A stretch of DNA of 34,407 bases from a virus (lineage: Duplodnaviria; Caudoviricetes). The stretch is from positions 1 to 34,407 of IMG/VR virus record IMGVR_UViG_3300011339_000348; one strand, written 5' to 3'. The notes under the pieces were generated by a model. The model saw only the letters and a list, made by a program, of their open reading frames with translations. It was not told where the DNA came from and searched no databases. Of this stretch, positions 1,921 to 33,312 are shown piece by piece; position 1 is the stretch's first letter; the number at the start of each line of letters is the position of its first letter. A program made the position numbers and the translations under genes.

Positions 1921-1926
1921 TAAATA
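1921..1926 (+). promoter_or_regulatory. TAAATA late-promoter-like motif (leaderless start)
   Basis: cacTAAATAcatactATG: just after the terminator, 6 nt before ATG 1933, no SD. Confidence 0.75.
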
Positions 1927-1932
1927 CATACT

Positions 1933-2517
1933 ATGAGCAATATAAATAATCCCGAATACTTAGACGACACTGATCCTGAAAAGAACTATAATTATTATCG
2001 CCAAGACCACGGTGGAATGATTACAAACAACAACGGCGTAGCAGACAAGTTATTACAAAATAATGAACTGTATAATGCTATGAAAGGTAATTGGACCAGA
2101 ACAGAAGCAAGTAAAAGCAAAAACATCATTACAACTACAGGTCGTGAAGATGGTAAGTTTTACATTAAGCGTGAACAATTAAACATTAAACGCATATTAC
2201 AAGATGTAAAAGATTATCGTCAGGCCGCAGAAATGGGTATGCCTGATCCAATGGCACCATTAATGCCAGATGGAACATTAGGTTGGAAATGGATGGAATT
2301 GCCAAAAGTTATTAGTATTCGTATCAGCGATCAATATTTTGGTGGTATGCCGTGGAGTGCTATTAAAAACGACAGAACATTAAAAGCACAATTTTACAGA
2401 GTGGTTGAAACAGAATATCCTCAATATGTGTGCTATCCGGGTGGCAAACTACCCATACCAATAGAAGTATCATATCCTACAAAAGTAGGACAACAAAAAT
2501 TCTTTAGAGGACATTAA
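1933..2517 (+). CDS. Hypothetical protein of the head/neck module
   Basis: 194 aa ORF between capsid and adaptor genes; function from synteny only. Confidence 0.6.
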   Translation: MSNINNPEYLDDTDPEKNYNYYRQDHGGMITNNNGVADKLLQNNELYNAMKGNWTRTEASKSKNIITTTGREDGKFYIKREQLNIKRILQDVKDYRQAAEMGMPDPMAPLMPDGTLGWKWMELPKVISIRISDQYFGGMPWSAIKNDRTLKAQFYRVVETEYPQYVCYPGGKLPIPIEVSYPTKVGQQKFFRGH

Positions 2518-2519
2518 AA

Positions 2520-3704
2520 ATGTTTGTAATTCCAACAGGTGATGACCTAATAACATTCATCAAAGATTTCACAGGATCAACTAATGACGAAGAAATCAAG
2601 AAGTGCATATTTATGGCTGAGCTGAGTATGCGTAACATTGAGCTACCTGCATTACGCAGTGATCCATATGCAGTAGAAAACATTGGGGTAGCAGATGAAA
2701 TGGGACGCATCCCAATTCCAGGTGATATGAACAAACCTATTCTTTTCTTTAAGCAAGGCAGTCAATATACTACAACAGCAACCTGTACAGGCACAATAGG
2801 CACTAACACGATTACATTACAAAGTGCTCCTGCACAGAGTTTACAACCTGGTATGTTTGTTACTGGCACAGGCATTGCACCTGGATGTGTGTTAAACGCT
2901 GTGGGTGGTGGCACTATTGGAAGTGTTCTTACATTAAGTTTGAATAACACAGGCACAGTTAATGGTGAAATTACATTTACCACAGTTGGTAATAGTAGTA
3001 GCCAAACAGGTCCTTGGATTGTTTATGATCGTATTGGTGATAGAGATATTATTACACAGGGTATGATTGCTCAATTATATCTACAGCCAGTAAACGTTCC
3101 AGCAGTTATTCGTGGTAAGTTCAGTGAAGTTTATAACAAATATCAGTTTTTACCATATGTTGCTCAGGGCGATCTTATCAATATGTATTACTACAAAGCG
3201 TGGCCACTATTGTTTGCGCCAGTTGATGATTTACTAATTGACACAACTGCAACTGTTTCAGCAAGTACAGGTACAACTGCAACATTAACGGTAAATGATA
3301 GTAGTAGCGTAATGGTTGGTGACATATTAACAGCAACAGCGGGTGTAGGTGATTTTGGTCCTACCAACAAGGTAACAGTTACACTAGTGCCTACAGGCAC
3401 AACAATTACAATAAGTGGTACTGGCATTAGTGATGGATCAGTAACAGATGTTTACATTACTGACCAAACAGTTCAAAGTAATGCAGTATTACAAACTTGG
3501 GCAGAAGGTTATGTTTATTCAACATTGCGTGAATATTACATCAAACGTCACAATAGTGAAGATGCCGCAGTATACGCACAAAAATATGAGAATGCTTGGA
3601 ACATTGTTGAGGATCAAAACAATCTTGGCAAATGGAGTGGAGGTCACACACGATTGACTTCAGTATGGCAACCAAGACAGTATCGTCAATATAACATCAA
3701 ATAA
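2520..3704 (+). CDS. Head-to-tail adaptor protein with inserted beta-rich domains
   Basis: N-terminal IKKCIFMAELSMRNIEL and C-terminal SNAVLQTWAEGYVYSTLREYY resemble podovirus (SU10-type) adaptors. Two Thr/Gly/Val-rich insertions lengthen it to 394 aa. Confidence 0.7.
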   Translation: MFVIPTGDDLITFIKDFTGSTNDEEIKKCIFMAELSMRNIELPALRSDPYAVENIGVADEMGRIPIPGDMNKPILFFKQGSQYTTTATCTGTIGTNTITLQSAPAQSLQPGMFVTGTGIAPGCVLNAVGGGTIGSVLTLSLNNTGTVNGEITFTTVGNSSSQTGPWIVYDRIGDRDIITQGMIAQLYLQPVNVPAVIRGKFSEVYNKYQFLPYVAQGDLINMYYYKAWPLLFAPVDDLLIDTTATVSASTGTTATLTVNDSSSVMVGDILTATAGVGDFGPTNKVTVTLVPTGTTITISGTGISDGSVTDVYITDQTVQSNAVLQTWAEGYVYSTLREYYIKRHNSEDAAVYAQKYENAWNIVEDQNNLGKWSGGHTRLTSVWQPRQYRQYNIK

Positions 3705-3714
3705 GGTAAAAAAA

Positions 3715-6700
3715 ATGGCAAATGTATCATCAAACAATCTAACAACACTATATTCTGGGGGTGGCGTAAATGTAAGACCAACTTCAGCGTATGGCAATGC
3801 CAATGTTGTAGCATTACTTAATGCAGGAACAGATGGAGCAAACACTGTTACAAACATTGTTGCGACTGGTAATATTACAGCAAATAATATTAACGCAAAT
3901 ATAGTGTATCATAATAGCACAGGAGTTGCAATACAGAGCAATGCTTGGGCACAACTACAATATACCAATAGTAATGTTGCACCAGCAGACCAAACTAACT
4001 TAGGCACTGGTTCTTGGTTTTTTGTAGATAGTTCAGGTGCGGCATTTGAAAGTAATACTACTGGCACAACACATTCAATATTGTTTAGTAATAGTGGTAA
4101 TGTTACAGCAGAAAACTTTATTGGTAATGTTGTTGGTAACATCACAGGTAGTGCTAACTACGCAAACTATTCAAATATAGCAAATACAGCAAATAGCGTG
4201 AGTGTAGCAAATGTAGTTGGAATAGGCAACATTGCTGTAATAAACTTAGATGGTAATGTAAGCAACATTTTACACGGTGATGGATACTGGGGACCTGAAA
4301 GTGGCAATCTAAATGCTAACTTTGCTAACTACGCAGGAAATGTAACTAACTCAGCACAACCTAATATTACAAGTGTTGGCACACTAGTCAATGTATCAGT
4401 TACAGGTAATATTACATCTGTATCAGGTGTGTTTGTTGGTAATGGTGCAGGTTTAAGTAACTTGACAGGTGCTAATGTAAATGGCACTGTTGCTAATGCA
4501 AACTATGCGGCATATGCAGGTAATGTAACTATTGCTGGTCAAAGTAACATTACTAGTTTAGGCACACTAACAGGACTGTCAAGTAATGGAATAGTTGATT
4601 TTGCTAATGCTGCCAACGTAAATCTTGGATCTAATAGTAATGTTCATATTGGTGGTGGTGCGGCTAACTACGCATTGATTACAGATGGTGCAGGTAATTT
4701 AAGTTGGGGGCAAGTGGCAAACGCATTAGTTGCCAACTTTGCCAACTTTGCAGGTAATGTAACTAACTCAGCACAGCCTAACATTACAAGCGTAGGCACA
4801 TTAAGTAACTTATCAGTAAGCGGCAACATTACAAGTGGTAATGCTAATTTGGGCAATCTTGCTGTTGCTAACTTCTTCAGTGGTAATGGTAGTTTATTGA
4901 CTGGCATTATTGCATTAAGCAGTAATTTTGCCAACTACGCAGGCAATCTAATTAATGGCACCAGCAATGTTAATACTAACGGAGCAAATGGAAACATTAG
5001 TGTTAGTGTAAATGGTGTTGCTAATGTTGCTACATTTCAAAATAATAGTATCAACTTAAATTATGCTATTAATACTCCAAATTACATTTATATTGGTACA
5101 AATTCAGGAAATCGTGCTAGTATTAAAAGCAATTTAATTGCTATAGGAACAAATACAGCAACACTAACTAATGTTAATGATACTAGAACTATTGTAATAG
5201 GTCACGAGGCTGCTAGCAGTCTTACTCTTGCTACTCCTGGAAGTAATACTATTATTATTGGGACAAGTGCGGCACTACAAAGTGCAGGAGATAATAGAGT
5301 TGTTATTGGTAGAGGTGCAGGTCAAGCAGGTATCGCTAATAATGTCGTAACTATTGGTTCTGTGGCCGGAACTTGGCCAGGAGATGACAGTATTTCGATT
5401 GGCACAGGCGCAGGTAGCCTTTTAACAAGTCAAACAAATGCAATTGCAATTGGAAGTGGTAGTCAGGCCTTTTCAAATTCTATTGCAATAGGAGGAAGCG
5501 CACAATCAAATGTCGTTAATTCTATTGTGTTAAACGCTACCGGATCAGTATTAACTCAAACAACAGCAAACACATTTACTGTTAAACCAGTTCGTAATGT
5601 ATTGACTGGTAATGCAATGTTTTATAATAGTTCTACTGGTGAAATAAGTTATGATGTTGTTGGTAATCTTGTTGCTGGTAATGCAAACTTTGCAAACTTT
5701 GCTGGTAATGTAACTGTAAGTAGCCAATCTAATATTACTACACTTGGTAATTTATTGTATGCCAATGTAGTTGATAGTGGCAACGTTACTGGTACTAAAC
5801 AACAATTTAGTCCAAATACAATAACTGTTGGTACTAATTCAACCACTAATGCATCATATAACTTAACCACACTATATGGTTTAACAAGTAATCTTGCAGA
5901 ACCAGGATCAAGAGCAATAATTCGCAGTCGTGGTAATAGTGCAACACCTGCTACTGCACAAGTCAATGATATTGGTAGTAGAGAACAAGTTTTCTTTTAT
6001 AATGGAACTACAAACGCTGTTGGATTTTCTACACAGGTAACATTAAGTAATTTAAACAGTAATAGTAATGCATTTACTACTGGTACAACATATAATTTAA
6101 GTGTTGGTAATCCTAATGGTGACCAAGGCAATACTAGCGCATTAAGTGGTTTTAACACATTACAATATGACGCAACTGGTACATTAACATTATTAAATGG
6201 TGCGGCACCAGCTGGTACTGGTGCATTGCAACAAATGCTGTTGGTAAATTATGGTCATACCAGCGGTAATACAAATGCCGCAGTTGGCGGCATAGTAATG
6301 CGTAGAGCCCGTGGCAACCGTGATGCTAATGTAACAGTAGAGCCAAACGATCAATTAGGTCGTGTTGTATTTGGAGGATATAATGGTACTATCTTTCAAA
6401 CTAATCGCACTGCATTAGTAAGAGGTATAGTTGATAGTAGTTATGTTGGTGGAAATGCCAACATACCAATTGGCTTACAATTTATTACTTGCGATAATAC
6501 TACTTCTTACACACATAATTTTTACGCAAATAGTAATGTTGTTTTTGCTACATCAACAACTGTAACAGCAAATGGTGGATTTAACACGACTGGTGTAGTA
6601 AGTGCTACTGGTAATATTACTGGTGGTAATCTTATTACTGGCAATATAACTGCAAGTGGTGGAACTTATAGTTTAAGTAATGGTGCTGGTGGTGCAACTA

Positions 6701-7329
6701 GTTTAAGTTTCATTGGTGATAAAACAACAAACAGCAGTTTTAGTTTGTTTAATGCACAGTTCAGTGTGTCAATGAGTAATGTGAATACTACAACTGGTTT
6801 CAGTCCGTTTAGATTCCAACAATATGCACCTACTAGCAGTGAGTTTGGTGATATGTTTATGTATCGTAGCAGAGGTAATAGTTTGGCCAACTCAGCACCA
6901 GTAGTTGCTGGCGATAAAATAATGCAAATCAACTTTATTACTAATAGTAATAATGCTACTTCAAGTGTTGGAGCTTTTAGTTCAAGTATTACATACAATG
7001 ATAATGCTGGCAATGTTGGATCTAAACTTGAATTAAATGCTGTTGGAACTGGTACAACTGGTTATTTAAATGGTCAAATTAATTTATTAGCAAATACAAC
7101 TGCGGCTAATAACTTTACTGCTAACAATGTAACTATCAATAATAGTGTTAATGGCTTTATGAAGTTATCAAGCTATACAGCGGCGGCATTAACAGCAATC
7201 ACTGGAAGTGTTGGTTGGATGGCGGCTGTAACTAATAGTGCTGGTGGTAGTAACCCAAATGGTATGATTGCATTCTGGGACACAACAAATAGTCGTTGGA
7301 GTTATGTCCACGATAATAGTGCTGTATAA
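3715..7329 (+). CDS. Long tail fibre / adhesin
   Basis: 1204 aa, very Asn/Gly/Ala/Thr-rich. Recurrent ANFANYAGNVT...QPNITSVGTL units and a YadA-head-like xIAIG repeat block (LIAIG, SISIG, AIAIG, SIAIG). Confidence 0.8.
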   Translation: MANVSSNNLTTLYSGGGVNVRPTSAYGNANVVALLNAGTDGANTVTNIVATGNITANNINANIVYHNSTGVAIQSNAWAQLQYTNSNVAPADQTNLGTGSWFFVDSSGAAFESNTTGTTHSILFSNSGNVTAENFIGNVVGNITGSANYANYSNIANTANSVSVANVVGIGNIAVINLDGNVSNILHGDGYWGPESGNLNANFANYAGNVTNSAQPNITSVGTLVNVSVTGNITSVSGVFVGNGAGLSNLTGANVNGTVANANYAAYAGNVTIAGQSNITSLGTLTGLSSNGIVDFANAANVNLGSNSNVHIGGGAANYALITDGAGNLSWGQVANALVANFANFAGNVTNSAQPNITSVGTLSNLSVSGNITSGNANLGNLAVANFFSGNGSLLTGIIALSSNFANYAGNLINGTSNVNTNGANGNISVSVNGVANVATFQNNSINLNYAINTPNYIYIGTNSGNRASIKSNLIAIGTNTATLTNVNDTRTIVIGHEAASSLTLATPGSNTIIIGTSAALQSAGDNRVVIGRGAGQAGIANNVVTIGSVAGTWPGDDSISIGTGAGSLLTSQTNAIAIGSGSQAFSNSIAIGGSAQSNVVNSIVLNATGSVLTQTTANTFTVKPVRNVLTGNAMFYNSSTGEISYDVVGNLVAGNANFANFAGNVTVSSQSNITTLGNLLYANVVDSGNVTGTKQQFSPNTITVGTNSTTNASYNLTTLYGLTSNLAEPGSRAIIRSRGNSATPATAQVNDIGSREQVFFYNGTTNAVGFSTQVTLSNLNSNSNAFTTGTTYNLSVGNPNGDQGNTSALSGFNTLQYDATGTLTLLNGAAPAGTGALQQMLLVNYGHTSGNTNAAVGGIVMRRARGNRDANVTVEPNDQLGRVVFGGYNGTIFQTNRTALVRGIVDSSYVGGNANIPIGLQFITCDNTTSYTHNFYANSNVVFATSTTVTANGGFNTTGVVSATGNITGGNLITGNITASGGTYSLSNGAGGATSLSFIGDKTTNSSFSLFNAQFSVSMSNVNTTTGFSPFRFQQYAPTSSEFGDMFMYRSRGNSLANSAPVVAGDKIMQINFITNSNNATSSVGAFSSSITYNDNAGNVGSKLELNAVGTGTTGYLNGQINLLANTTAANNFTANNVTINNSVNGFMKLSSYTAAALTAITGSVGWMAAVTNSAGGSNPNGMIAFWDTTNSRWSYVHDNSAV

Positions 7330-7511: not shown

Positions 7512-7543
7512 CGCCTTAAACACCCGTTTTTTGCTATTTTTGA

Positions 7544-7549
7544 TAAATA
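7544..7549 (+). promoter_or_regulatory. TAAATA late-promoter-like motif
   Basis: tgaTAAATAt upstream of the SD (ggaga) and ATG 7582. Confidence 0.65.
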
Positions 7550-7581
7550 TATTTCTATTAGAATAGAATGGAGAGATACAA

Positions 7582-8037
7582 ATGGCAAGAGGAAGACCTA
7601 AAGGCAGTAAATCGTTATTAGAACGATTATTAGAACGAGTTATAATCAATGAAGTAACTGATTGTTGGGAATACCAAGGCGGTAAAAACAACATTGGTTA
7701 TGGAATGATACGTGACGAGAAGAAAATGCGAACGACACATCGTGTCAGTTATGAGGAACACAAAGGACCTATACCACCTGGTATGTGCGTTCTACACAAG
7801 TGTGATAATACAATCTGTTGTAATCCCAATCATTTATGGTTAGGCACACTCAAAGACAATACCCAAGATATGATGAGTAAAGGACGTGCTAAACCTTTTG
7901 GTGGGCATTTAGATACTGGTGGAATGAAAGGTAAGAAACAACCAACAACACTTTGCAAGTATTGTAATCGGTTAATGCCAAACAATAGTTATGCAAGATT
8001 TCACGGGGAAAAATGTAAATCTAAACAAATAGAATAA
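7582..8037 (+). CDS. HNH endonuclease (homing-endonuclease type)
   Basis: CWEYQG...GYG...THRVSY...VLHKCDNTICCNPNHLWLGTLKDNTQDM is a canonical HNH motif. N-terminal RGRPKGS and C-terminal CKYC...RFHGEKCK. Confidence 0.92.
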   Translation: MARGRPKGSKSLLERLLERVIINEVTDCWEYQGGKNNIGYGMIRDEKKMRTTHRVSYEEHKGPIPPGMCVLHKCDNTICCNPNHLWLGTLKDNTQDMMSKGRAKPFGGHLDTGGMKGKKQPTTLCKYCNRLMPNNSYARFHGEKCKSKQIE

Positions 8038-8040
8038 ATA
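8035..8040 (+). promoter_or_regulatory. TAAATA motif ahead of a non-coding structured segment
   Basis: gaaTAAATA overlaps the HNH stop; no sizeable ORF follows before the terminator at 8187. Confidence 0.6.
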
Positions 8041-8043
8041 ATT

Positions 8044-8227
8044 GTGTAGTGAGACACCTGAATTGCATATTTCAGTTATCCTATTATCTACGCCATAGAT
8101 AGTTCCTTTAACCCGTCTCACTACACTTTCGTTTAGTTCATAATAAGAAGTTCGTTATCCTGATTAGTTATCGCAATGATAACTTTGAAGCCTCTAAAGT
8201 TTTAGTCATCTTTAGGGGCTTCTTTTT
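8044..8227 (+). ncRNA. Candidate structured small RNA
   Basis: A perfect 12-bp stem (8044-8055/8115-8126) encloses two hairpins. A further hairpin lies at 8166-8184, then a terminator. Bounded by a promoter motif and a U tract. Confidence 0.6.
8187..8227 (+). terminator. Rho-independent terminator
   Basis: gaagcctctaaag-ttttagtcat-ctttaggggcttc-ttttt: 13-bp stem with one G-U pair, then a U tract. Confidence 0.85.
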
Positions 8228-8336
8228 ATCTACCGTGTATGTAGATACACATCCTGGCGAGATATCCAGTTATTTTATTTTCACTCAAAAAACACACAAA
8301 AAACACGGCTGTAGGCGCCTACAACACAACATTTTT

Positions 8337-8393
8337 TGTTGTTTTTATACAACAACAGATTTTTAGATAGAGAACTGTTGTATTTTTACAACC
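8337..8393. promoter_or_regulatory. Two palindromic operator-like sites TGTTGT-N6-ACAAC
   Basis: tgttgtttttatacaaca (8337-8354) and tgttgtatttttacaacc (8376-8393), just upstream of the sigma70 -35 box. Confidence 0.55.
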
Positions 8394-8403
8394 CCAACAA
8401 TAT

Positions 8404-8432
8404 TTGACAAAGAATAAAGGTTATGTTATACT
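8404..8432 (+). promoter_or_regulatory. Sigma70-type early promoter
   Basis: TTGACA (8404-8409), 17-bp spacer, extended TG, TATACT (8427-8432); SD aaggaa and ATG 8461 follow. Confidence 0.85.
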
Positions 8433-8460
8433 TGATGTAACAAACAACTAAAGGAAAGTT

Positions 8461-8949
8461 ATGGCGTCATTAGCAGAAATCAGGGCTCGTATGGGCATTA
8501 TACAAGAAGAAAAACAAAAGGAAGATAAACCAGATCCAATCACTTATGAACAATATAAAGTATGGGATCAACTAAAAAAACCAAATAAGGTGTCCGATGT
8601 AGATGTGAGAATATATCATCATTCGGATAAGTCATTACACAACACATTGGAATGTCCAAAATGTGAAAGTGAGTATATGCACCATATCGGTGTTGAACTA
8701 TTCAACTGTGAAGAGGATGAACCGGGAGAACATATAGAACTATACCTCAAAGAATCATATGGATGGGATATGCTTAATGTAAAATGCCCAGAACATACGG
8801 TAAATAGTGATATGAAAAATAATCCAAGCAAAAGACGTAATGGATTATCCATTTCATTTGTATGTGAAGAATGTCATCATATACTACATTTGGGTATTGC
8901 TCAACATAAAGGTTTAACACAACTTTCTTGGAGCTTTATGAATGGCTAA
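8461..8949 (+). CDS. Early hypothetical protein with two CxxC motifs (Zn ribbon-like)
   Basis: 162 aa containing CPKC and CEEC; first gene after the sigma70 promoter; good SD. Confidence 0.7.
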   Translation: MASLAEIRARMGIIQEEKQKEDKPDPITYEQYKVWDQLKKPNKVSDVDVRIYHHSDKSLHNTLECPKCESEYMHHIGVELFNCEEDEPGEHIELYLKESYGWDMLNVKCPEHTVNSDMKNNPSKRRNGLSISFVCEECHHILHLGIAQHKGLTQLSWSFMNG

Positions 8950-9190
8950 AAACCTAGAACAACATATTAGAGATAGTTTTATTAAACTAAACGAACGTGA
9001 AGAACTATATGAAAGTCACAACTTACATAGTGAAATATTGACTAATCATTTGGAAAAAGAACGAGATAGTTTGCGTAGATTACAGTTTCTATTATATCTA
9101 ACTATGAAAGAGCAATACCCAAATGAAACTATTGATGGGACTACTATGTTTGAGAAATATCTTTTTGAAATAAAGGTCACATTAAAATGA
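8942..9190 (+). CDS. Hypothetical protein
   Basis: 82 aa, overlaps the preceding stop, SD ggag. Confidence 0.65.
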   Translation: MAKNLEQHIRDSFIKLNEREELYESHNLHSEILTNHLEKERDSLRRLQFLLYLTMKEQYPNETIDGTTMFEKYLFEIKVTLK

Positions 9191-9232
9191 CCAAAAAACA
9201 TATGTTTTTTAACGGTTATTTGCTATAATGAC

Positions 9233-9357
9233 TAAATACACTTGTACATATTGACATTTGTATAACACTCCAGTTAGAAACCCCTGATTAGCGTCAGGGC
9301 GTTTCGTCTAAACGCTAATAGATTAAGACTGTAGTACAACATTTAACTGGAACTGAA
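9233..9357 (+). promoter_or_regulatory. TAAATA motif followed by a structured 5' leader
   Basis: gacTAAATA at 9233-9238. Stem 9269-9276/9344-9351 encloses two hairpins with complementary loops. Confidence 0.55.
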
Positions 9358-9663
9358 ATGTATTCAATAGAAGAACTTACCGCACTCAGTGCTGCCACTG
9401 AAACAGAAAACTACGAAAAGAACTATGACTTCTGGTATGTCATAGACCACTTACCCATAGAGGATCTCATTCTCTGGGCAGAACGACTAACAAAAACAAA
9501 ATATCTAAGTAATCACAATGGTGAATATTGGCTAGACCTTATTGATTTAATCAGTATCGCTAAACAACCTATGACTATGATACTCACAAACAAACAAAAA
9601 CGCTATATGTGTATGTTAGTGATTAGTTGCTGGAATGATTTGGAGTGTGATTATGTGTTATGA
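9358..9663 (+). CDS. Hypothetical protein
   Basis: 101 aa ORF overlapping the start of the polymerase-like gene. Confidence 0.65.
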   Translation: MYSIEELTALSAATETENYEKNYDFWYVIDHLPIEDLILWAERLTKTKYLSNHNGEYWLDLIDLISIAKQPMTMILTNKQKRYMCMLVISCWNDLECDYVL

Positions 9664-10753
9664 ACCAAACTACAATGATCCTCGTGTAAGAAAACGCATT
9701 CGTAAAGCACTTGGATTCGTCGGGTCTTGTTTAAGTGAAACAGAACCACACGCCTGGTCAACTCGCTACATAGATAAGCACTTAGGTCATCAAAAAGAAA
9801 ATCTCAGTAAATATCTGAGGTTTAATCTATTATCTTGTGTAAGTGACAGATACAGCAAAGACACAGGTGTATGTAAGAAATACATCAAAAATAAAACGGG
9901 TTATGATTTGGTCAATAATCTACTGAATAACATAACTCAATACCCTAGTGTGTCGGAAGTCGGACTAATACAAGATTGGGTCAAAACAGAATACAAGAAC
10001 GAACTATCTACATTAGATTTCACCTATGATGATAAGTCACATAGATTGTGGCACCCATTACAGCGTGTAAAAAAGCAATATAAAAAAGAAGTTTTTACTG
10101 AAGTGGGTCTCAAATATCAATACGATATAGAATGTTGTGCTCCTACTCTTATACATCAGTTTAGTCAAAAGATACCCGAAATACTACAAGATAACAAATA
10201 CATACAAGGCCCTATGGATTTGTATCTATTCGCACTTAGAAGTTATCTTAAAGACCGTAAATCAATAAGAACTATGTTAGCAACTGAAGCCGAGATACCT
10301 GAGGGTCATATCAAAGTAATCATCAACGCATTACTTGCGGGTGCTCATTTAACTAATAACAAAGATAGCGATATCTATAAACTACTTGGTGGAGATAAGG
10401 CACGCATAGAATATCTTAAACAACACCCATATCTATTAGAACTACGTAGTGATATCAAGACCTGCTGGGATTACATCAAACAAGTATTACCTCGCAGGAG
10501 TGTCGTCAATAAGAACAATAAAACTCAAATGCTACCCATATCAAGTAAGCAAAAAGCAAATACATATTTTCAGTTAGAACGACTTGTATTAGAACAAGTA
10601 GTTGATTTTATGAAGCAATCAGGTGATATACAATATTTTCTGGAACACGACGGGTGGGTATGTAATAAACAACTCAATGAAGAACTACTGATTAAATGGA
10701 TAAAAGATAAAACGGGTTATGATATTCAACTGGATATGGTTGTTCTTGTATAA
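9653..10753 (+). CDS. Minimal family-A-polymerase-like protein (putative replication protein)
   Basis: Start re-called at ATG 9653 (SD ggag at 9642). Ordered motifs RLWHPLQ, YDIECCAP (A-like), KVIINALLAG (B-like), FQLE and LEHDGW (C-like). No exonuclease domains. Confidence 0.55.
   Translation: MCYEPNYNDPRVRKRIRKALGFVGSCLSETEPHAWSTRYIDKHLGHQKENLSKYLRFNLLSCVSDRYSKDTGVCKKYIKNKTGYDLVNNLLNNITQYPSVSEVGLIQDWVKTEYKNELSTLDFTYDDKSHRLWHPLQRVKKQYKKEVFTEVGLKYQYDIECCAPTLIHQFSQKIPEILQDNKYIQGPMDLYLFALRSYLKDRKSIRTMLATEAEIPEGHIKVIINALLAGAHLTNNKDSDIYKLLGGDKARIEYLKQHPYLLELRSDIKTCWDYIKQVLPRRSVVNKNNKTQMLPISSKQKANTYFQLERLVLEQVVDFMKQSGDIQYFLEHDGWVCNKQLNEELLIKWIKDKTGYDIQLDMVVLV
9927..9965 (+). repeat. 39-bp direct repeat, copy 1
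   Basis: ataacataactcaataccctagtgtgtcggaagtcggac; 37/39 identical to 10750-10788. Confidence 0.92.
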
Positions 10754-10788
10754 CATAACCTAATACCCTAGTGTGTCGGAAGTCGGAC
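10750..10788 (+). repeat. 39-bp direct repeat, copy 2 (partial third copy at about 10809-10826)
   Basis: ataacataacctaataccctagtgtgtcggaagtcggac at the stop codon; ccctctaagtgtgtcgga follows. Confidence 0.92.
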
Positions 10789-10844
10789 CTTTCACTAAAA
10801 ACAATAGTCCCTCTAAGTGTGTCGGATCTTTATAAAGGAACATA

Positions 10845-11021
10845 ATGACAGAAGAACAAAGAGATATTATTAGAATGCTAAAATATGGCACGATTGACAT
10901 TGAAGAACTTCCTGAGGAAGAACTAACTGAAGAAGAAAAACAATGGATAGAGGAAGATGAAGATTATTCACTACAAGTAATGATGGATATGTTAGATATT
11001 GAGAATATATCGGATAACTAA
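10845..11021 (+). CDS. Small highly acidic protein (58 aa; not in ORF track)
   Basis: SD aaaggaa. MTEEQRDIIRMLKYGTIDIEELPEEELTEEEKQWIEEDEDYSLQVMMDMLDIENISDN has 21 D/E against 4 K/R. Confidence 0.75.
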   Translation: MTEEQRDIIRMLKYGTIDIEELPEEELTEEEKQWIEEDEDYSLQVMMDMLDIENISDN

Positions 11022-11029
11022 ATAGTGGT

Positions 11030-11257
11030 ATGAAACCCACTCCCATAACATTACATAAGAAAAATCTCTATCTGGTTGAAGATATGCCCAATATGTATCT
11101 TACCCATCAATATCAAAAGACAATAAAGTCTTGGACCTTCATTGGTTATCGTTGTTCAGCCTGTGGTCAATCATTAAAACAGGTTGGCAACATTGTAAAA
11201 CATAATGACTTGTGCCGTGTGTTAAACAAGAAAACAAAGACAGACGAGCCTATATAG
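11030..11257 (+). CDS. Small zinc-finger-like protein
   Basis: YRCSACG...KHNDLC. Preceded by TAAATA (11019-11024) 5 nt before the ATG. Confidence 0.65.
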   Translation: MKPTPITLHKKNLYLVEDMPNMYLTHQYQKTIKSWTFIGYRCSACGQSLKQVGNIVKHNDLCRVLNKKTKTDEPI

Positions 11258-11305: not shown

Positions 11306-11311
11306 TAAATA
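11306..11311 (+). promoter_or_regulatory. TAAATA late-promoter-like motif
   Basis: gaaacacTAAATAc, the same extended context as at 17533-17546. Confidence 0.75.
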
Positions 11312-13530: not shown

Positions 13531-14414
13531 TGACAGCAAAATACCCAGTAGAAACTAGTGACCAAGAAGGCATTGTTGATGCAGTAAACTATTTGTTAAG
13601 TGGTCCTGCAGGCTTAGGTCAGAACTTTCAAGGCTTTAGTGCTTATCTTCCGGCATATGTTCGCCCAAGCACAAGACAGCCTTTTATGCTACCGTTAGAC
13701 ACTACACTGATACCCACGTGGGCGTTTAATTGGACAATTACAAACATAACACTAGTAGGATCTAATCCAACACAATACTTACAAATAGACTTTACACCGA
13801 GCGTTGTCTTAACTGACCCGCCCTTTGAATATGGTGATAGACTATTAGTAGCAGGTGTTAATCCAAGCTTCTATGATGACCGTTATACTGTATTAAGTTC
13901 AACAACTACGTCAGTGATTGTGTTTCCGTCAAAAGATTATACTTGGCCTGCATACGTAAGCGGTGGCACAGTTGGTAGAGATTGGTATGACGTTGCTACA
14001 TCTACTGATTGCAATGCACGTGTAACAGTATTGGGTCCAACAGACCAAGTGTTCGTTACAGCACAAATAATATTAGACATTGACTACACAGCCAGCACAG
14101 CAAGTGACTTTGATATTGTAGTGTCTATAGATAGACTTACCGGCTTTCCCACAAATAAAGCCGGAGACAACGATTATGTTTTTAGTAATCTTGTTACAGT
14201 AAGTGAAAGAACGTTTAACTATACGCCAAGTGTTAGTGGCAGTATTAACGATTTAGAAACTATATTCACAACCGTGCTTGATGGTCCCAATTTAGATTTT
14301 GGATACTACTGGTACATATTAGATATCAGTTTTAATGTCAATAGTGGTGATGTGTTGCCCGGCAATGTGATTGCAGGCTTACGCAGTTTAACAGCACAAG
14401 TTATCAAGCAGTAA
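13530..14414 (+). CDS. Putative tail/virion protein
   Basis: 294 aa, acidic and beta-rich; coupled to the nozzle gene (TAATG). Confidence 0.55.
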   Translation: MTAKYPVETSDQEGIVDAVNYLLSGPAGLGQNFQGFSAYLPAYVRPSTRQPFMLPLDTTLIPTWAFNWTITNITLVGSNPTQYLQIDFTPSVVLTDPPFEYGDRLLVAGVNPSFYDDRYTVLSSTTTSVIVFPSKDYTWPAYVSGGTVGRDWYDVATSTDCNARVTVLGPTDQVFVTAQIILDIDYTASTASDFDIVVSIDRLTGFPTNKAGDNDYVFSNLVTVSERTFNYTPSVSGSINDLETIFTTVLDGPNLDFGYYWYILDISFNVNSGDVLPGNVIAGLRSLTAQVIKQ

Positions 14415-14435
14415 ATATAAGAACAAGGTAAAACG

Positions 14436-17539: not shown

Positions 17540-17545
17540 TAAATA
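17540..17545 (+). promoter_or_regulatory. TAAATA late-promoter-like motif
   Basis: gaaacacTAAATAcat upstream of SD aagga and ATG 17568. Confidence 0.75.
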
Positions 17546-20920: not shown

Positions 20921-21622
20921 ATGGATCCAACATTACAAACAAAGATAGACGAAGCAAAAGCAAATGGCTACACTGATGAAGAAATCAGTGCTTATCTTGG
21001 TAGTCAATCTACTCCTGCTCCTCAACAAGGATTAGGTCCTATGGACCGTAGTGCAGAATACACTGGTTTAGCACAAGGTATGGGTATGAATGCATTAGGG
21101 AATGCTGTTGAGTATGGTGTTCCTGCAGCCGCAGCCGTGTATGGTGTAAAAAAACTTATTGATGCTTATAAAGGTCCTGTATCACCAGCGCAAGCCGCAC
21201 AAATGGGTCAAGCAGGACAAGCCGCACAAAATGTTGGGCAAGCAGTTCGTGCTACTGGAACAGGTGGCGCAGGTGCATTCAATCAAATGGCAAATCAGTT
21301 GAGTAATAATACAATACAATTTCCTAAAGGTCCTGTATCACCAGCACAAGTTACACCACCAACAAGTCCTTCACCGACACAAGCACCTGGTATGATGAGT
21401 CAAGGATTGGATTATGTAAATAAAATGAGACAGATCGCCGCAGAAAAGGTAATACAAAATGCAGGCAATATAGCAAAAGCAGGAGTAGGCATAGGTGCTA
21501 TGACTTACTCAGCCCCATTAGGTCCCCCCGTACCTAATAAAGGTCCTTATAGAGGAATGGAAATAAACCCAATGTCAGGTAGACCTTGGAGACCTGAAGA
21601 ACTTGCACAAATAAACAGATAA
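20921..21622 (+). CDS. Putative internal virion protein
   Basis: 233 aa; begins KIDEAKANGYTDEEISAYL; A/G/Q/P-rich; synteny. Confidence 0.5.
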   Translation: MDPTLQTKIDEAKANGYTDEEISAYLGSQSTPAPQQGLGPMDRSAEYTGLAQGMGMNALGNAVEYGVPAAAAVYGVKKLIDAYKGPVSPAQAAQMGQAGQAAQNVGQAVRATGTGGAGAFNQMANQLSNNTIQFPKGPVSPAQVTPPTSPSPTQAPGMMSQGLDYVNKMRQIAAEKVIQNAGNIAKAGVGIGAMTYSAPLGPPVPNKGPYRGMEINPMSGRPWRPEELAQINR

Positions 21623-21630
21623 GTATAGAT

Positions 21631-22062: not shown

Positions 22063-22141
22063 GACACCTAAAACGCTATCAAGAACCAAGTGATTTTGTG
22101 TCTTTCTAACTTGGGCATCAACGAATAGGCAGGCGAGTTTG

Positions 22142-22651: not shown

Positions 22652-22671
22652 TATTTAACGAAACATAAATA
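22652..22671. promoter_or_regulatory. Divergent pair of TAAATA motifs
   Basis: TATTTA at 22652-22657 (minus-strand TAAATA, for the gene at 22630) and TAAATA at 22666-22671 (for the gene at 22693). Confidence 0.75.
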
Positions 22672-23814: not shown

Positions 23815-23828
23815 GTTATAAATACATT

Positions 23829-24179
23829 ATGGAAAAGACAGAAACAACAGTAAAGAAACCAAGAGGCAAGGGCGGTGCTCGTCCAGGTGCGGGCAGACCT
23901 AAAGGTGGCACTAATCAAGTATCAGTCAATGGATTATTAGCCGCGTTGGAAAGAAAAACAAAAGGTGTTGGTTATGAAACGATATTGATGGAAGACTTCA
24001 TCAATGCCAGAGAGAGCAAGGATCATCAGTTAGTCATTAAATATCACAACCTAATATTGAATAAGTTAATGACACACATTAGCAAGATTGAGATTACTGA
24101 TAGCCAAGACACTATTGATATGAAGCAAAAAGCCTTTACAGATGCATTGGCTAAACTCGCAGGAATAAAGAAAGACTAA
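23829..24179 (+). CDS. Basic protein, terminase-small-subunit-like N-terminus
   Basis: GGARPGAGRPKG motif. TATAAATA (23817-23824) lies 4 nt before the ATG. Confidence 0.55.
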   Translation: MEKTETTVKKPRGKGGARPGAGRPKGGTNQVSVNGLLAALERKTKGVGYETILMEDFINARESKDHQLVIKYHNLILNKLMTHISKIEITDSQDTIDMKQKAFTDALAKLAGIKKD

Positions 24180-24187
24180 ATAGTGTT

Positions 24188-24413: not shown

Positions 24414-24569
24414 ATGAAAAACGGACTATACGCAAACATAAACGCCAAGCGAGAACGCATAAAAGCGGGATCGGGTGAGAAGATGCGTAAGCCGGGTACT
24501 AAAGGTGCACCAACAGCTAGTGCGTTTAAGCAATCAGCAAAAACGGCTAAGAAAACAAAGACTAAATAA
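24414..24569 (+). CDS. Small basic phage protein (51 aa)
   Basis: Start re-called just after the previous stop: MKNGLYANINAKRERIKAGSGEKMRKPG... Confidence 0.7.
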   Translation: MKNGLYANINAKRERIKAGSGEKMRKPGTKGAPTASAFKQSAKTAKKTKTK

Positions 24570-24573: not shown

Positions 24574-24723
24574 ATGCCATTAATCAAATCAACTAGTAAA
24601 CAAGCATTCAAAAAGAATATTGGTAAAGAGATTGCTGCCGGGAAACCCCCTAAGCAAGCAGTAGCTATTGCTTACGCTACTAAAAAACAGGCAGCAAAGA
24701 AAACAAAAGGAAAATCAAAATGA
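24574..24723 (+). CDS. Small basic phage protein (49 aa)
   Basis: Start re-called: MPLIKSTSKQAFKKNI...PKQAVAIAY. TAAATA (24563-24568) lies 5 nt before the ATG. Confidence 0.7.
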   Translation: MPLIKSTSKQAFKKNIGKEIAAGKPPKQAVAIAYATKKQAAKKTKGKSK

Positions 24724-26284: not shown

Positions 26285-26293
26285 GGAAACAAA

Positions 26294-26742: not shown

Positions 26743-26743
26743 G

Positions 26744-26751
26744 TATAAATA
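26744..26751 (+). promoter_or_regulatory. TATAAATA late-promoter-like motif
   Basis: Exact T4 late consensus; followed by the hairpin aaagagac-atttgt-gtctcttt. Confidence 0.7.
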
Positions 26752-26801
26752 GAAAGAGACATTTGTGTCTCTTTTATTGTTTTGATATGAAAGGAAATTA
26801 T

Positions 26802-27608: not shown

Positions 27609-27904
27609 ACGATGTAAGAGACAGTGTTATTCGTCAGGCACAACAGCAAGCAAAAACAAGCGACACATTAATTATGCAAAAGATTAATGCTAGTCATCGT
27701 GTTGCTTTTGCTGAGAAGTTTCCTGGTCAATGTGAACACATACTACGATTACTAACAGAACGATTACAAGCAGGACTTGATAAGCGTGATGGTGTATTGA
27801 TTGAAGATGTAAGTACTTGGAAACTATCACCACAAGAACTTAAAGATTTAAGTAAAGCACTTGAAGCAATATACTTTGTCCATAAAAGTTTGAAAGCAGA
27901 GTAA
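27605..27904 (+). CDS. Small helical protein upstream of terL (possible terminase small subunit)
   Basis: ATGA overlap with the previous stop and TAATG coupling to terL; function from synteny only. Confidence 0.5.
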   Translation: MNDVRDSVIRQAQQQAKTSDTLIMQKINASHRVAFAEKFPGQCEHILRLLTERLQAGLDKRDGVLIEDVSTWKLSPQELKDLSKALEAIYFVHKSLKAE

Positions 27905-29514
27905 TGTTAGGTGAAGATGTTCTAATGGCGAGAGCATTGCGCTATAGTGTGGATAAACACAATCTCACTATTGACAGTCTCAAAACAATACCGGGACCAT
28001 TAAAAAGTTCATTAATGGATCTCAGTATTAGTATTGCTGATGATATGAAATACAATCAACTAAAGTATTTTAGACCATTCAAGCATCAAACTGAGTTTTT
28101 CAAAACAGGTATACACGAACGTAGAGGCATTCTTGCCGCTAATCGTATTGGTAAAACAGTTAGTACTTGTTTTGAGACAGCAATGCATCTCACTGGGATA
28201 TATCCTGAATGGTGGGAAGGTCATCGCTATGAAGGACCTATCACAGCAATGGTTGCTGGTGAGGGATGGAGCCAAGTTGCTCTTGTATTACAAAATGAAT
28301 TGTTAGGAACGCAAGATGTCAAAATCACTGAAAATCTTGGATCTGGTGCTATACCACGTGAGTGTATTGTTACTAGTACTATGCGTAATGATGGGGCAAA
28401 CAACATTGGTTGCGAGATTAAGCATAAGTCTGGTGGTAATAGCTATTTGTTATTTGCCAATTATACGCAAGAGGTACGACAACTACAGGGTTTCAAACTA
28501 AACTTAGCTGTATTTGATGAACAACCACCGGACGATTTCTTCAGTGAGATTGTTACACGTACAGCTACCACACAAGGTAAGGTCCTTTGTTCCTTTACAC
28601 CATTAAAAGGATTGAATGGATTGGTTAGTAAGTTTTGGAACCGTGAAGAAGGATACAACTATATTCGTGTTGCTTGGGATGATGTTCCAGAATACGATCC
28701 TTGGGGTCATCCATTCTTATTAAAAGAAACACGCAGACAACTAGAACGTGATTACTTACCACACGAACGTGAAGCACGTATGGCAGGTAAGCCTGTTATG
28801 GGTAAAGGTGCTGTGTTCCAAATCAATAACTGGCCTACATATAAAACGGGTGAAGTTGATTTTACTAGAATGCCAAACATTCATAGAGTTATCGCACTTG
28901 ACTTGGGCTTAGTTAATGACAAGACTGTTATATCATTAATGTATTGGGAACCACACGAACGAACAGCATACTTACATAAACAGATTATTGTGCAGGGCAT
29001 AGAAGAAGCTGTCCCTACACAATACATTAATCATTTGCTTAGACCTGAAGTGTTTGGTACACCGATTGTGTTACCTGCTGACGCTAACACTTCAGGTCGC
29101 TATACTATGAGTGCGGCATCAATACGTGAACTGTTTGAAAGCTACGAACTTAACGTGTATGAAAAAGCCATTATGAATCCTCCAGATAGTGAAGGTCGTA
29201 CAACTAATCACAAAAGTTATGGTATCAATCAAATGCGTCAGATGTTAGAAGTGGGAAGTTTGATGATTAACGAAAATTGTACAAACTTTCTAAGTGAAGC
29301 ACAAAACTATTATGTAGATGTACAGGGTAGATTTAGTGACCCAGACGATTGTATTGATAGTTGTAGATATGCTATACTGGCTTGTCTAAATGGAATTGCT
29401 GAACCTTGGGACAATCGTAGTCCTCAACAAAGAATGGCAGCACAACGTGACCGCTACGTTAAATATGATGATAGCAATAAACCAGCTTGGAAGAAAGCAT
29501 ATTCAGCAAATTAA
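27904..29514 (+). CDS. terL: Terminase large subunit (P22-like)
   Basis: Walker A AANRIGKT, Walker B AVFDEQPP, coupling motif SFTPLKG, nuclease IALDLG...DDCIDSCRYA. Confidence 0.95.
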   Translation: MLGEDVLMARALRYSVDKHNLTIDSLKTIPGPLKSSLMDLSISIADDMKYNQLKYFRPFKHQTEFFKTGIHERRGILAANRIGKTVSTCFETAMHLTGIYPEWWEGHRYEGPITAMVAGEGWSQVALVLQNELLGTQDVKITENLGSGAIPRECIVTSTMRNDGANNIGCEIKHKSGGNSYLLFANYTQEVRQLQGFKLNLAVFDEQPPDDFFSEIVTRTATTQGKVLCSFTPLKGLNGLVSKFWNREEGYNYIRVAWDDVPEYDPWGHPFLLKETRRQLERDYLPHEREARMAGKPVMGKGAVFQINNWPTYKTGEVDFTRMPNIHRVIALDLGLVNDKTVISLMYWEPHERTAYLHKQIIVQGIEEAVPTQYINHLLRPEVFGTPIVLPADANTSGRYTMSAASIRELFESYELNVYEKAIMNPPDSEGRTTNHKSYGINQMRQMLEVGSLMINENCTNFLSEAQNYYVDVQGRFSDPDDCIDSCRYAILACLNGIAEPWDNRSPQQRMAAQRDRYVKYDDSNKPAWKKAYSAN

Positions 29515-29523
29515 GGAATAGAA

Positions 29524-30959: not shown

Positions 30960-30980
30960 TAGAGATAAAATAGGTATGAC

Positions 30981-30986
30981 TAAATA
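30981..30986 (+). promoter_or_regulatory. TAAATA late-promoter-like motif
   Basis: gacTAAATAgtag upstream of the portal ATG 31014. Confidence 0.7.
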
Positions 30987-31013
30987 GTAGATACTAAAGG
31001 TAAAAGCCCCATT

Positions 31014-33296
31014 ATGTTAGATATCAAAAATATCCCAGTTGAGAACATCAATCAAAATAGAACGCAAAACGCAAGATTCGTCCGTATGAAGAACCAGATG
31101 GATGTGAAAATGGCAAGCTATTTGCGCTATTTAGGCACCAAAAACGCAGTCAATCGTGCCAGTGATTATCACTATCTATGTCTTGCTGTAACGGATTCAA
31201 CAGCGCCCGTGAATGGCATTGACTACATTCACCCATCCGTAAAACCCGTAGTAGATTACGCAACAGCAGTAGTCGCTAAGGGATTAATGCCAAATGGCGA
31301 AATCAACTTTGAGTTTGTAGCAGATACAGAAGATGATGAAATAGCCGCACGTCAAGCCAGCGATATGGTCAGTAAAGTTGTCAACCAAATGAATGATCCA
31401 CACTTCATCTTAGAACGTTGGATTATGGATGCGATGATGCACAAGAATGGTATGATGATGATTAAGCCCATACGTGAGCCTATCACCCGTTATGTAGAAA
31501 CACAGGGTACATTAGACCAACTACGTGCATTTGAACAACAAGCAGGTGACAGTGGATTAACCGCATTACGTCAATCTAAACGCAAAGTCAGTGTTGAGAT
31601 GGATAAAGTTATTGCTGAAGTTCAACAACTTGTGGGTGAGCAACAAAGCGAGTTAGCAAAGTCTATGGTAGAAAGTCGTATGAATAGTATGATGCAAATG
31701 CCAGAAGATATGGATCCAGAATCAATGGCAATGGAACAAGAAGAAATAACTGCTGGTTCTATTGAAAGCCAAGAAGAAATACTTAACAGTGCTATCAATC
31801 GCAATACAATCTATTCAGCAAAATACAAACTAACTGGTTACAATATCAACGTTAGATTTCACCCAATTGCTCAACACTATTGGATCTGTGATCCTACTGT
31901 GCCTGAGATGAAGGATCAACCATTCTGTGGTTACTACGATCCAATGAGCATACAAGAAGCAATGGAGTTATATCCAGGCATCAACTTGGAAGAGTTTAGA
32001 ACTCACGCAGAATACAATATGAATGGTGCATATCAAGCAGGTAGTGTATTAAACAACTTAGCCATTCACGCACGTGATAGTGTTCCAGTTATGGGTATCC
32101 CTGTTAGTAGTGCGGCAAGTGCTGATCCAGATAGTCGTCAGATATCAGTTGTTACAGTTTGGAACAGATATGATATTGACGGTGACGGTGAGTTAGAACT
32201 TGTTGAGTTGATTTACTCTGGTTCATACATTATTAGTGCGAGGGAAGTTGAGTTTATACCAGTCGCTAATATGTGTCCTAAGCCACTACCAGGCAACTTC
32301 TATGGTATGAGTGTTGCTGAATCAGTGATACCTATGCAAGAATACAACACTTCAGCCGCACGTGCCGAGATACAGTTAGGACTATTAACAGCAACTCCTC
32401 GTATTGGTGTTAAACCAGACAGATTAGACTTTGAAATGTTACAAGATGGCGAAAGTGCTATCTTTATCTTAGACAGTAAGTTTGATCCAACAAAAGACAT
32501 TTATCAACTACCTCCCCCATCAGGTAATCTACAGTTCTTGGAAGTTGCTATGAATCGCATACAACAAGATACAATGGCTATGGTTGGAATGACTACACCT
32601 GCTGATGTGTTCAATCCAGAAGTAATGGCTCCTGGTAACAGTGGTATCAAGTTACAGTTAGCATTAAGTCCTAATCAAATCATACAAGACAATACAGTTC
32701 GTAACAGTGCTGAAGGTCTTAGAGAAGCATTATGGTTAGTATGGCGTACATTAGTTCAGTATGGTGATGATTATGGTGTTCGTAAGTTAGCACAACAGTT
32801 TAATCCAACTAAGAAAGCAGAGTTCTTAGATTATGTGTCTTGGGACGATATGAACTTCTGTGATAGAAAACAGATACGTATGGAACTAAGTTTGGGTATG
32901 ATGAGTGAAGAAAATGCATTGGGCAGATTACAAATCATTCAAAAGTGCCAACAAGATTTATATCAAACAACTACAAGTATGGTAACAGCAGGCACGTTGA
33001 CCAAAGAAGTATATCAGAAAGTTAAGAAGCCATTCGCTGATACATTGTATGTATTGGGCGTAAAAGATTGCGATAGTTATCTACCAAGTGATAGTGAAGT
33101 AGAACAGATGATTAAACAAGGTCAAGAAGCAATGAAGAACCGTGAGCCCTCACCAAGAGATAAGAAAGATTTATCAAGTGCTAATCTTGACGATGTAAAA
33201 GCAAAACAAATAGAAATGGAAGTTGCCGGAACTGACGCTGAAAGTCAGCTAGATTTTATGGCGATGGCAGCAGGGGATCCAAAAGTTTATTCGTAA
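31014..33296 (+). CDS. Portal protein (P22/SU10-like)
   Basis: 760 aa. EDDEIAARQASD, DAMMHKNG, DIDGDGELEL and FYGMSVAE..IPMQ motifs; located between terL and scaffold. Confidence 0.9.
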   Translation: MLDIKNIPVENINQNRTQNARFVRMKNQMDVKMASYLRYLGTKNAVNRASDYHYLCLAVTDSTAPVNGIDYIHPSVKPVVDYATAVVAKGLMPNGEINFEFVADTEDDEIAARQASDMVSKVVNQMNDPHFILERWIMDAMMHKNGMMMIKPIREPITRYVETQGTLDQLRAFEQQAGDSGLTALRQSKRKVSVEMDKVIAEVQQLVGEQQSELAKSMVESRMNSMMQMPEDMDPESMAMEQEEITAGSIESQEEILNSAINRNTIYSAKYKLTGYNINVRFHPIAQHYWICDPTVPEMKDQPFCGYYDPMSIQEAMELYPGINLEEFRTHAEYNMNGAYQAGSVLNNLAIHARDSVPVMGIPVSSAASADPDSRQISVVTVWNRYDIDGDGELELVELIYSGSYIISAREVEFIPVANMCPKPLPGNFYGMSVAESVIPMQEYNTSAARAEIQLGLLTATPRIGVKPDRLDFEMLQDGESAIFILDSKFDPTKDIYQLPPPSGNLQFLEVAMNRIQQDTMAMVGMTTPADVFNPEVMAPGNSGIKLQLALSPNQIIQDNTVRNSAEGLREALWLVWRTLVQYGDDYGVRKLAQQFNPTKKAEFLDYVSWDDMNFCDRKQIRMELSLGMMSEENALGRLQIIQKCQQDLYQTTTSMVTAGTLTKEVYQKVKKPFADTLYVLGVKDCDSYLPSDSEVEQMIKQGQEAMKNREPSPRDKKDLSSANLDDVKAKQIEMEVAGTDAESQLDFMAMAAGDPKVYS

Positions 33297-33304
33297 TATA
33301 AATG

Positions 33305-33312
33305 TATAAATA
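33305..33312 (+). promoter_or_regulatory. TATAAATA late-promoter-like motif (head operon)
   Basis: Exact T4 late consensus upstream of the 33334-scaffold-capsid unit. Confidence 0.75.

Follow-up and report, generated by a model that had tools for sequence, protein, structure and literature searches.

The stretch analysed here, hereafter the window, is the whole 34,407-nt sequence of the IMG/VR virus record IMGVR_UViG_3300011339_000348 (Duplodnaviria; Caudoviricetes), a small tailed phage whose promoter-like TAAATA boxes are the subject of this report. A 191-nt terminal repeat in the record indicates a complete circle of ~34.2 kb. Among the 39 window proteins scanned, those of the particle include the capsid and portal (both SU10-type), the terminase, and fibre-like and further virion proteins; a DNA methylase, an HNH nuclease, a glycosyltransferase and a Dps-like protein were also identified. 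The window encodes tail-like proteins as well as capsid, portal and terminase, in line with the proposal in a preliminary description of this DNA that the element builds its own podovirus-type particle. The main particle genes are the following.

671..1843, + strand: SU10-type major capsid protein (PF17236, E 2e-33); without a box of its own, likely read from the box at 33307.
3715..7329, + strand: fibre-like protein of 1204 aa, with segments similar to jumbo phage fibre-like genes.
27904..29514, + strand: terminase large subunit.
31014..33296, + strand: SU10-type portal protein (PF23899, E 3e-46).

TAAATA boxes stand before the virion and packaging operons, and from the sequence evidence below we consider the phage probably a virion-encoding satellite that depends on the gp55-like sigma factor of a PA5oct/RaK2-like jumbo phage for late transcription. 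All 15 plus-strand TAAATA sites named in the preliminary description were found in place, as were the minus-strand site and the TAAGTA variant. The sites are listed here with orthologue counts taken from 80 related loci out of 551 capsid matches in IMG/VR; genome counts refer to the clade set, which comprises the window and 20 near-complete relatives (21 genomes).

1921..1926, + strand: TAAATA, 6 nt before the ATG of a 194-aa gene; leaderless; behind a terminator-like hairpin.
7544..7549, + strand: TAAATA, 32 nt before the HNH gene; overlaps a 10/12 sigma70-like site.
8035..8040, + strand: TAAATA, with no open reading frame (ORF) behind it; a structured RNA follows.
9233..9238, + strand: TAAATA, directly after an extended -10-like TGcTATAAT; 119 nt before a 101-aa gene.
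11019..11024, + strand: TAAATA, 5 nt before the ATG at 11030; leaderless.
11306..11311, + strand: TAAATA, 26 nt before a 730-aa virion gene; in 17/18 cluster members.
14412..14417, + strand: TAAATA, on a stop codon; 18 nt before a 1024-aa gene.
17540..17545, + strand: TAAATA, 22 nt before a 236-aa core gene; in 21/21 genomes.
21620..21625, + strand: TAAGTA variant, 5 nt before the Dps-like gene (ATG at 21631); gap 5 also in jumbo contigs.
22652..22657, - strand: TAAATA, 21 nt before the only reverse gene (22142-22630); in 16/18 orthologues.
22666..22671, + strand: TAAATA, 21 nt before the glycosyltransferase gene.
23819..23824, + strand: TATAAATA box, 4 nt before the ATG at 23829; leaderless; in 28/28 orthologues, 25 at gap 5.
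24177..24182, + strand: TAAATA, 5 nt before the ATG at 24188; leaderless.
24563..24568, + strand: TAAATA, 5 nt before the ATG at 24574; leaderless; in 22/23 orthologues.
26746..26751, + strand: TATAAATA box, 50 nt before a 268-aa gene at the head of the terminase operon; in 36/49 orthologues within 60 nt.
30981..30986, + strand: TAAATA, 27 nt before the portal gene; in 63/63 orthologues.
33307..33312, + strand: TATAAATA box, 21 nt before a 114-aa gene at the head of the scaffold-capsid operon; in 47/65 orthologues.

Counting the hexamer over the whole window proved to be the wrong test and shows no enrichment. TAAATA occurs 28 times against a shuffle mean of 43.3 (99/100 shuffles reach 28), and TATAAATA occurs at chance (4 against 3.4 expected), so that the promoters are not "genome-wide", as they had been called, in the sense of a count. 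Sixteen of the 28 matches had been listed and the remaining 12 lie inside coding DNA; three of the listed sites are full TATAAATA as claimed, and the list had missed a fourth, inside a gene at 1941. Within the 60-nt windows upstream of genes, TAAATA is enriched over the composition-matched background, an outcome on which the preliminary description had staked its proposal, with 15 matches at 14 of 38 genes against 8 in the other 31,804 plus-strand positions (ratio 26.9, Fisher p 2e-13). It was the most enriched of 15 hexamers of the same composition, and shuffled upstream windows gave a mean of 4.1 and a maximum of 10 genes with TAAATA, with none of 2000 shuffles reaching 14. The boxes fall into two spacing classes: one lies ~5 nt from an ATG that has no ribosome-binding site, the other 18-32 nt upstream. 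Five sit 4-6 nt ahead of the ATG (shuffle mean 0.24, 0/2000 reach 5); by a four-letter match, a ribosome site was found at none of these five genes and at seven of the nine other box-bearing genes. The genome-wide count below chance, and the presence of four sites on TAA stops, could be taken to mean that TAAATA is a by-product of AT-rich intergenic DNA and stop codons. The rank among the 15 hexamers, the failure of all 2000 shuffles and a fixed spacing that is kept across diverged flanks refute this explanation, and ATA follows only 4 of 30 TAA stops, so a stop-codon artefact does not explain the signal. An archaeal TATA box was likewise rejected: the upstream windows are rich in AAGGAA, bacterial ribosome-binding sites are present in the window, and a gap of 4-6 nt to the ATG does not suit such a box. 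A lone TATA-type box upstream of late and virion genes, above background, is the arrangement expected of a gp55-read promoter and is what we observed. The strict TATAAATA consensus is present at 3 of the 16 listed sites; the preceding base is mostly C or A, a pattern that resembles the ATAAATA motif of the jumbo phage CBB.

The boxes are maintained in relatives. A box precedes the gene at 1933 in 61/61 orthologues (47 at gap 5), and together with those before the portal gene and the gene at 23829 it persists in every orthologue despite diverging flanks; operon-internal genes have no box (0/55, 0/54 and 0/52). Each of the 21 clade genomes is enriched for the upstream box, 11- to 95-fold. A terminator-like hairpin with a T run lies directly before the 1921 box in 18/20 genomes, and this operon therefore needs a promoter there. 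The SU10-like podoviruses and MW202484 share the capsid and portal families of the clade, and MW202484 served as outgroup: its virion genes are those of the clade, similarly arranged (capsid 61%, terminase 50% identity), and it is syntenic over the virion module. No TAAATA or TAAGTA was found in its 28 upstream windows, and its overall enrichment was 1.2-fold (p 0.6). Because this syntenic outgroup is without them, the boxes are likely a derived trait of the clade. Unlike the clade, MW202484 also has lambda-like control, recombination and lysis-type genes, its annotations including cro, HTH, ERF, RusA and chitinase.

We searched for the protein that could read the box. As the preliminary description had maintained, no sigma factor was detected in the window or the clade, with working positive controls. 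The gp55-like family phrog_12791 was found in 0/21 clade genomes against 5/5 jumbo contigs. A profile built from jumbo sigmas found T4 gp55 at E 4e-10 and gave a best clade match of E 0.74, and a broad gp55 profile run over 16,257 six-frame segments found its controls at E 5e-61 and 9e-16, with a best clade match of E 2.3. Profile-profile comparison of 71 clusters with gp55 gave a top probability of 5.8%, against 95.4% for T4 gp55. In PHROGs scans, 143 representatives of 70-620 aa, each standing for one cluster, returned no sigma, RNA polymerase or integrase, and an endolysin family match in 1/21 genomes; gp33 and gp45 were absent from the same scans, in which no dedicated profile was used for either. 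Conserved boxes before virion operons and the lack of a detectable sigma together make it likely that the late genes are read through a jumbo sigma.

An RNA polymerase protein among the hypotheticals had been named, next to a sigma, as a finding that would overturn the proposal. The window does encode a polymerase core, but too few clade genomes have it for it to be the reader.

9635..10753, + strand: family-A polymerase core of 372 aa, without exonuclease.

The model of this protein (pLDDT 92) matches T7 DNA polymerase at E 3e-5, and a sequence search against solved structures returned nothing. In fold comparison Klenow (Z 12.3, rmsd 4.0, 220 aligned) ranked above T7 RNA polymerase (Z 9.2, rmsd 6.7, 266 aligned). 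The core is full-length in 2/21 clade genomes, with a weak partial match in a third, and a primase-like gene takes its place in 12/21. Its rarity therefore marks it as a swappable replication gene and not as the clade's reader; a phage RNA polymerase was rejected on fold rank and distribution, and the protein is likely a replication initiator or primase-polymerase. The family counts 421 relatives of ~370 aa, which match nothing in Pfam or PHROGs and have an additional N-terminal domain. The two copies of a 42-nt direct repeat, one within the polymerase gene (9924-9965) and one just after its stop (10747-10788), are a candidate origin.

Use of the box extends to other small phages. Ten of ten that carry the polymerase core and other virion genes were enriched for it, 4.6- to 27-fold, and three of the phages scanned have distinct head modules, which suggests that box users form a guild and not a single lineage. 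A reader supplied by the host cell, either an alternative host sigma or a gp55-like gene in the chromosome or in a carrier-state jumbo phage, would explain a box shared by small phages of several virion types. The conserved positions of the sigma70 -10 box are missing from TAAATA, phrog_12791 was found in 0/14 control genomes, and the spacing profile fits jumbo phages, which encode the sigma themselves; we regard a host reader as highly improbable.

The comparison with large phages points to a particular kind of sigma supplier. Late promoters of T4 (PMC2988020) and CBB (PMC5259590) are described in those papers as a single TATA-type box, placed roughly one helical turn ahead of the start, read by a gp55-type sigma and without -35 conservation, and in CBB the boxes precede structural genes. 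The window differs from T4 in having C or A before the hexamer rather than the TATAAATA form, in its leaderless class, which is absent from the T4 region checked, and in having no gp55 in the genome. The cultured jumbo relative CBB is reported to encode a gp55-like sigma and to have an ATAAATA motif before structural genes, with no gp33 or gp45 homologue reported in the sections of its paper cited here (PMC5259590), which leaves unsupported the role given to gp33 and gp45 in the preliminary description. Among 897 jumbo ORFs, box gaps of 4, 5, 6 and 7 nt occurred at 22, 51, 8 and 23 sites, and three long jumbo contigs mirror the gap profile of the clade, with a peak at 5, a dip at 9-16, a second group at 17-32 and the TAAGTA variant. 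T4 had no gap under 9 among 54 starts. A helper had been proposed among T4-like or jumbo phages; this can be narrowed to PA5oct/RaK2/Atu_ph07-like jumbo phages as the likely helpers, in preference to T4 proper.

Individual genes also connect the clade to jumbo phages. The first concerns the protein encoded directly behind a sigma70-type promoter at 8404-8432, described below.

8461..8949, + strand: 162-aa protein with the N-terminus of a jumbo gp32-like single-stranded DNA-binding protein (SSB; 10 identical residues) and a widespread Cys-rich domain.

This protein starts MASLAEIRAR. A scan for the start pattern returned 120 loci, namely the window's twin and 119 copies of a ~330-aa gene, which was identified in L128 as a gp32-kind SSB and whose closest GenBank relatives are in PA5oct-like phages, Phosso, Atu_ph07 and other jumbo phages. 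MASLxxIR is retained in 5/5 close homologues of the 162-aa protein, and the wider family, mostly of ~100-130 aa, is without the N-terminal extension; no genomic context of other carriers was found in the 9 of 64 parts scanned. Complex prediction for the N-terminus and the SSB core gave a score of 0.38 against 0.00 for the best of three controls, which supports binding weakly; the mark was reached by 116/157 solved and 2/215 mismatched pairs, with 18 solved pairs and both mismatches at or below 0.60. Contact agreement in these runs was at least 65% and partner pLDDT at least 54. The score may be due to the resemblance of this sequence to gp32's own N-terminus.

The second link is a ~90-aa gene present in 12/21 clade genomes; in a set of 50,697 phage records it matched only 12, all PA5oct-like or Phosso jumbo phages, and its jumbo homologue matches 15 records, all from jumbo phages. 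Fold comparison of the ~90-aa protein yielded nothing clear (Z 5.2 at best, rmsd 3.3, 63 aligned). Across the 21 genomes this jumbo-derived gene (L285:2559-2849 and 11 relatives) never occurs together with a ~75-95-aa Cys-containing gene, which is found in 8 genomes including the window (11030-11257). Third, the methyltransferase of the relative L316 is 82.6% identical over 230 aa to a gene of the jumbo locus L157. A homologue of the polymerase core is found inside a gp55-encoding jumbo phage (L259:9986-11116, and L260), where it sits between baseplate hub and RusA-like genes, near the late sigma. Clade fibre-like genes have segments in common with the jumbo genome G021, the window gene (3715..7329) being 77% identical to it at the nucleotide level over 140 nt. 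The glycosyltransferase was considered as a further link and rejected, since its nearest outside relatives (64-75%) are not specific: they lie on mixed contigs, of which a few have strong jumbo-family neighbours (L320, L351). Jumbo-family contigs matching L157, mostly at 80-90%, were present in 4/4 of the window's runs; with no negative control and at most two studies, we do not count this as evidence. From the promoters and these gene links it appears rather likely that the boxes are promoters read by a jumbo sigma and that the phage needs a helper.

Several observations weigh against this interpretation. That a jumbo sigma reads TAAATA is itself predicted. Cultured PA5oct has one gap-5 site among 61 starts, and its paper, in the part relied on here, gives sigma70-like motifs only (PMC7318152); since T4 and PA5oct both differ in spacing, the match is to an uncultured jumbo branch. 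The SSB-like N-terminus is present in 1/21 clade genomes, and the window itself is without the jumbo-specific ~90-aa gene. Regions in common with the three jumbo contigs number 0-9 per clade genome and 2 in the outgroup, counts that do not separate the two, and only the specific gene cases therefore carry weight. Two relatives gave weak matches to activator/repressor families (E 0.003-0.007). A diverged reader could be missed by gp55 searches, and G037, a 34.7-kb phage with a different head type drawn from 24 other records bearing the polymerase core, has its own 139-aa gp55 (L253:11178-11597) just upstream of the terminase. The core proteins of 194, 268, 114 and 99 aa received no assignment from Pfam, PHROGs, NCBIfam and one atlas search, in which the 268-aa protein had no usable match.

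The last two points favour an autonomous phage, in which one of these core proteins, or an injected virion protein, would be a diverged sigma or activator. With G037 the search proved able to detect short sigmas, and this phage also shows that a small phage with this promoter type can be independent; of the 21 near-complete polymerase-core records, 20 were without gp55, and G037 is possibly an escape from helper dependence through sigma capture. No gp55 similarity was found in the clade, with working controls. The core genes lie in box-headed operons, so that expressing them would already require the product of one of them; no gene of the sigma70-driven module is clade-wide, and orthologues of the 194- and 268-aa proteins occur in the outgroup, which has no boxes. 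We consider an autonomous reader unlikely.

A second class of promoter is present in the window. The preliminary description had noticed no consistent -35 box, which is true of most boxes; the departures are a 10/12 sigma70 match over the 7544 box and the following near-consensus site.

8404..8432, + strand: sigma70-type promoter TTGACA-17-TATACT with extended TG, 11/12 consensus; ahead of the non-virion module.

Many relatives have similar sigma70 sites ahead of non-virion genes, and no gene of the module is common to the clade. Two promoter-like classes can thus be distinguished: a sigma70-type site serves the replication module, which is swappable, and TAAATA stands ahead of the operons for virion and packaging proteins. 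The sigma70-like sites raise the alternative that box use is facultative, with the host polymerase giving enough late expression for slow autonomous growth and the boxes only boosting or rescuing expression in jumbo-infected cells. Such sites overlap or adjoin boxes at 7540 and 9221, and in G006, G008, G011 and G018 they hold TAAATA in the spacer; a replication gene is carried by the phage itself, and an endolysin by one relative. Against this, the starts of the portal gene, the capsid and terminase operons and the gene at 1933 have no sigma70 site of at least 10/12 within 150 nt, and the terminator-like hairpin isolates the 1921 operon in 18/20 genomes. No cultured clade member was found among the 50,697 phage records, a weak argument as the host may be uncultured, and a host search of genome contigs with one clade-specific query alignment found no relatives. 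Facultative use seems to us improbable.

If the phage does depend on a jumbo sigma, its cycle can be sketched as follows. Without a helper only the sigma70 module would be on, and the DNA might persist or replicate slowly as an episome. On infection by a jumbo phage, the jumbo late sigma on the host RNA polymerase would fire the boxes at the T4-type register; the mRNAs would be leaderless if the ATG lies ~5 nt from the box and would otherwise be led by a ribosome site. The small phage would start its own replication, make its own particles and probably exit through helper-driven lysis. More speculatively, the 162-aa early protein might dock on the helper SSB via its copied N-terminal helix.

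The satellite P4 uses the late activator of its helper P2. The closest working analogy to the proposed arrangement is found in the virophages, where the helper's late-promoter motif lies upstream of 12 genes of Sputnik and all genes of Mavirus and expression is thought to depend on the helper's late transcription factor (PMC6723459). Like the clade, these have their own virion genes and a helper-type late motif, as that source presents them. Unlike the clade, they are eukaryotic, have a capsid of another lineage (jelly-roll) and use the giant virus factory, and no homology is implied; the phage described here is tailed, with SU10-type capsid, portal and terminase, would use the host polymerase with a helper sigma, and does not belong to Lavidaviridae. 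The Streptomyces satellite phages MiniFlayer and MulchRoom, according to the main text of PMC10690885, are like the clade in being bacterial satellites that encode capsid and packaging proteins themselves; their helpers are large and virulent, and MiniFlayer has no integrase and its own fibre. They are described there as without primase-like genes and dependent for replication, whereas the clade usually has its own replication genes and appears helper-dependent at late transcription; the words "promoter" and "sigma" are absent from that main text. Capsid-forming PICIs (cf-PICIs), PLE, P4 and I55 are likewise parasites of helper phages, the helper of I55 being a jumbo phage, but they integrate and take helper capsids or tails, as far as the cited portions of PMC12772148 and PMC10690885 describe them, whereas here virion genes are encoded and no integrase match was found among the 39 window proteins or the 143 cluster representatives. 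By analogy, the phage would work like a virophage and resembles MiniFlayer in having its own virion, and it is a member of neither group.

If this is correct, hundreds of metagenomic "complete phage" genomes, as indicated by the 551 capsid matches, parasitise jumbo phages and escape satellite searches keyed on integrases or missing virion genes. A six-letter box and a missing sigma would then be enough to predict, from sequence alone, that one phage depends on another and to which family the helper belongs, and bacteria would have a counterpart to the virophage strategy. We found no description of a satellite borrowing gp55 or its late promoter in the literature searched, which did not cover most subscription journals and supplements. 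We are evenly divided on the broader proposal that bacterial "virophages" form a widespread guild of tailed phages of 26-40 kb, with several unrelated virion types, complete particles and replication initiators of their own, late transcription by the gp55-like sigma of PA5oct/RaK2-like jumbo phages, exchange of fibre segments and core genes with these, SSB mimicry and rare independence via a captured mini-gp55.

The box at 8035 stands apart in having an RNA behind it.

8046..8230, + strand: predicted structured non-coding RNA, beginning 3-5 nt after the 8035 box, with a terminator-like hairpin at its end.

The fold of this RNA has a z of -5.75 (0/200 shuffles). Two diverged homologues were found among 454 loci, behind the same box (L011:15888-16049 and L263:8668-8768), with a closing stem that is altered yet paired; Rfam gave no family at threshold over 7900-9400. 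Its unpaired conserved stretches, UUCCUU and a GCCAU loop, are complementary to an AAGGAA ribosome site and an AUGGC start, and we note an antisense role as a lead only.

Contigs from independent runs match the window, and one from run X4 is identical to it over 8366-11173; two of the four matching runs examined carry the label riverine metagenome. Contigs of two runs skip 8336-9205 and 9265-11016; the modules with the SSB mimic and the polymerase thus resemble exchangeable cassettes between promoter sites. At 21631-22630, the Dps-like gene (20/21 genomes) and the reverse-strand 162-aa gene (18/21) are both clade core; the latter has no family match and is acetyltransferase-like by eye. The 1024-aa protein at 14436-17510 contains a long Gly-Ala-Ser repeat tract at a position that is highly variable among relatives, and the highest GC of the window (0.56, at 16001-17000) falls within this gene region.

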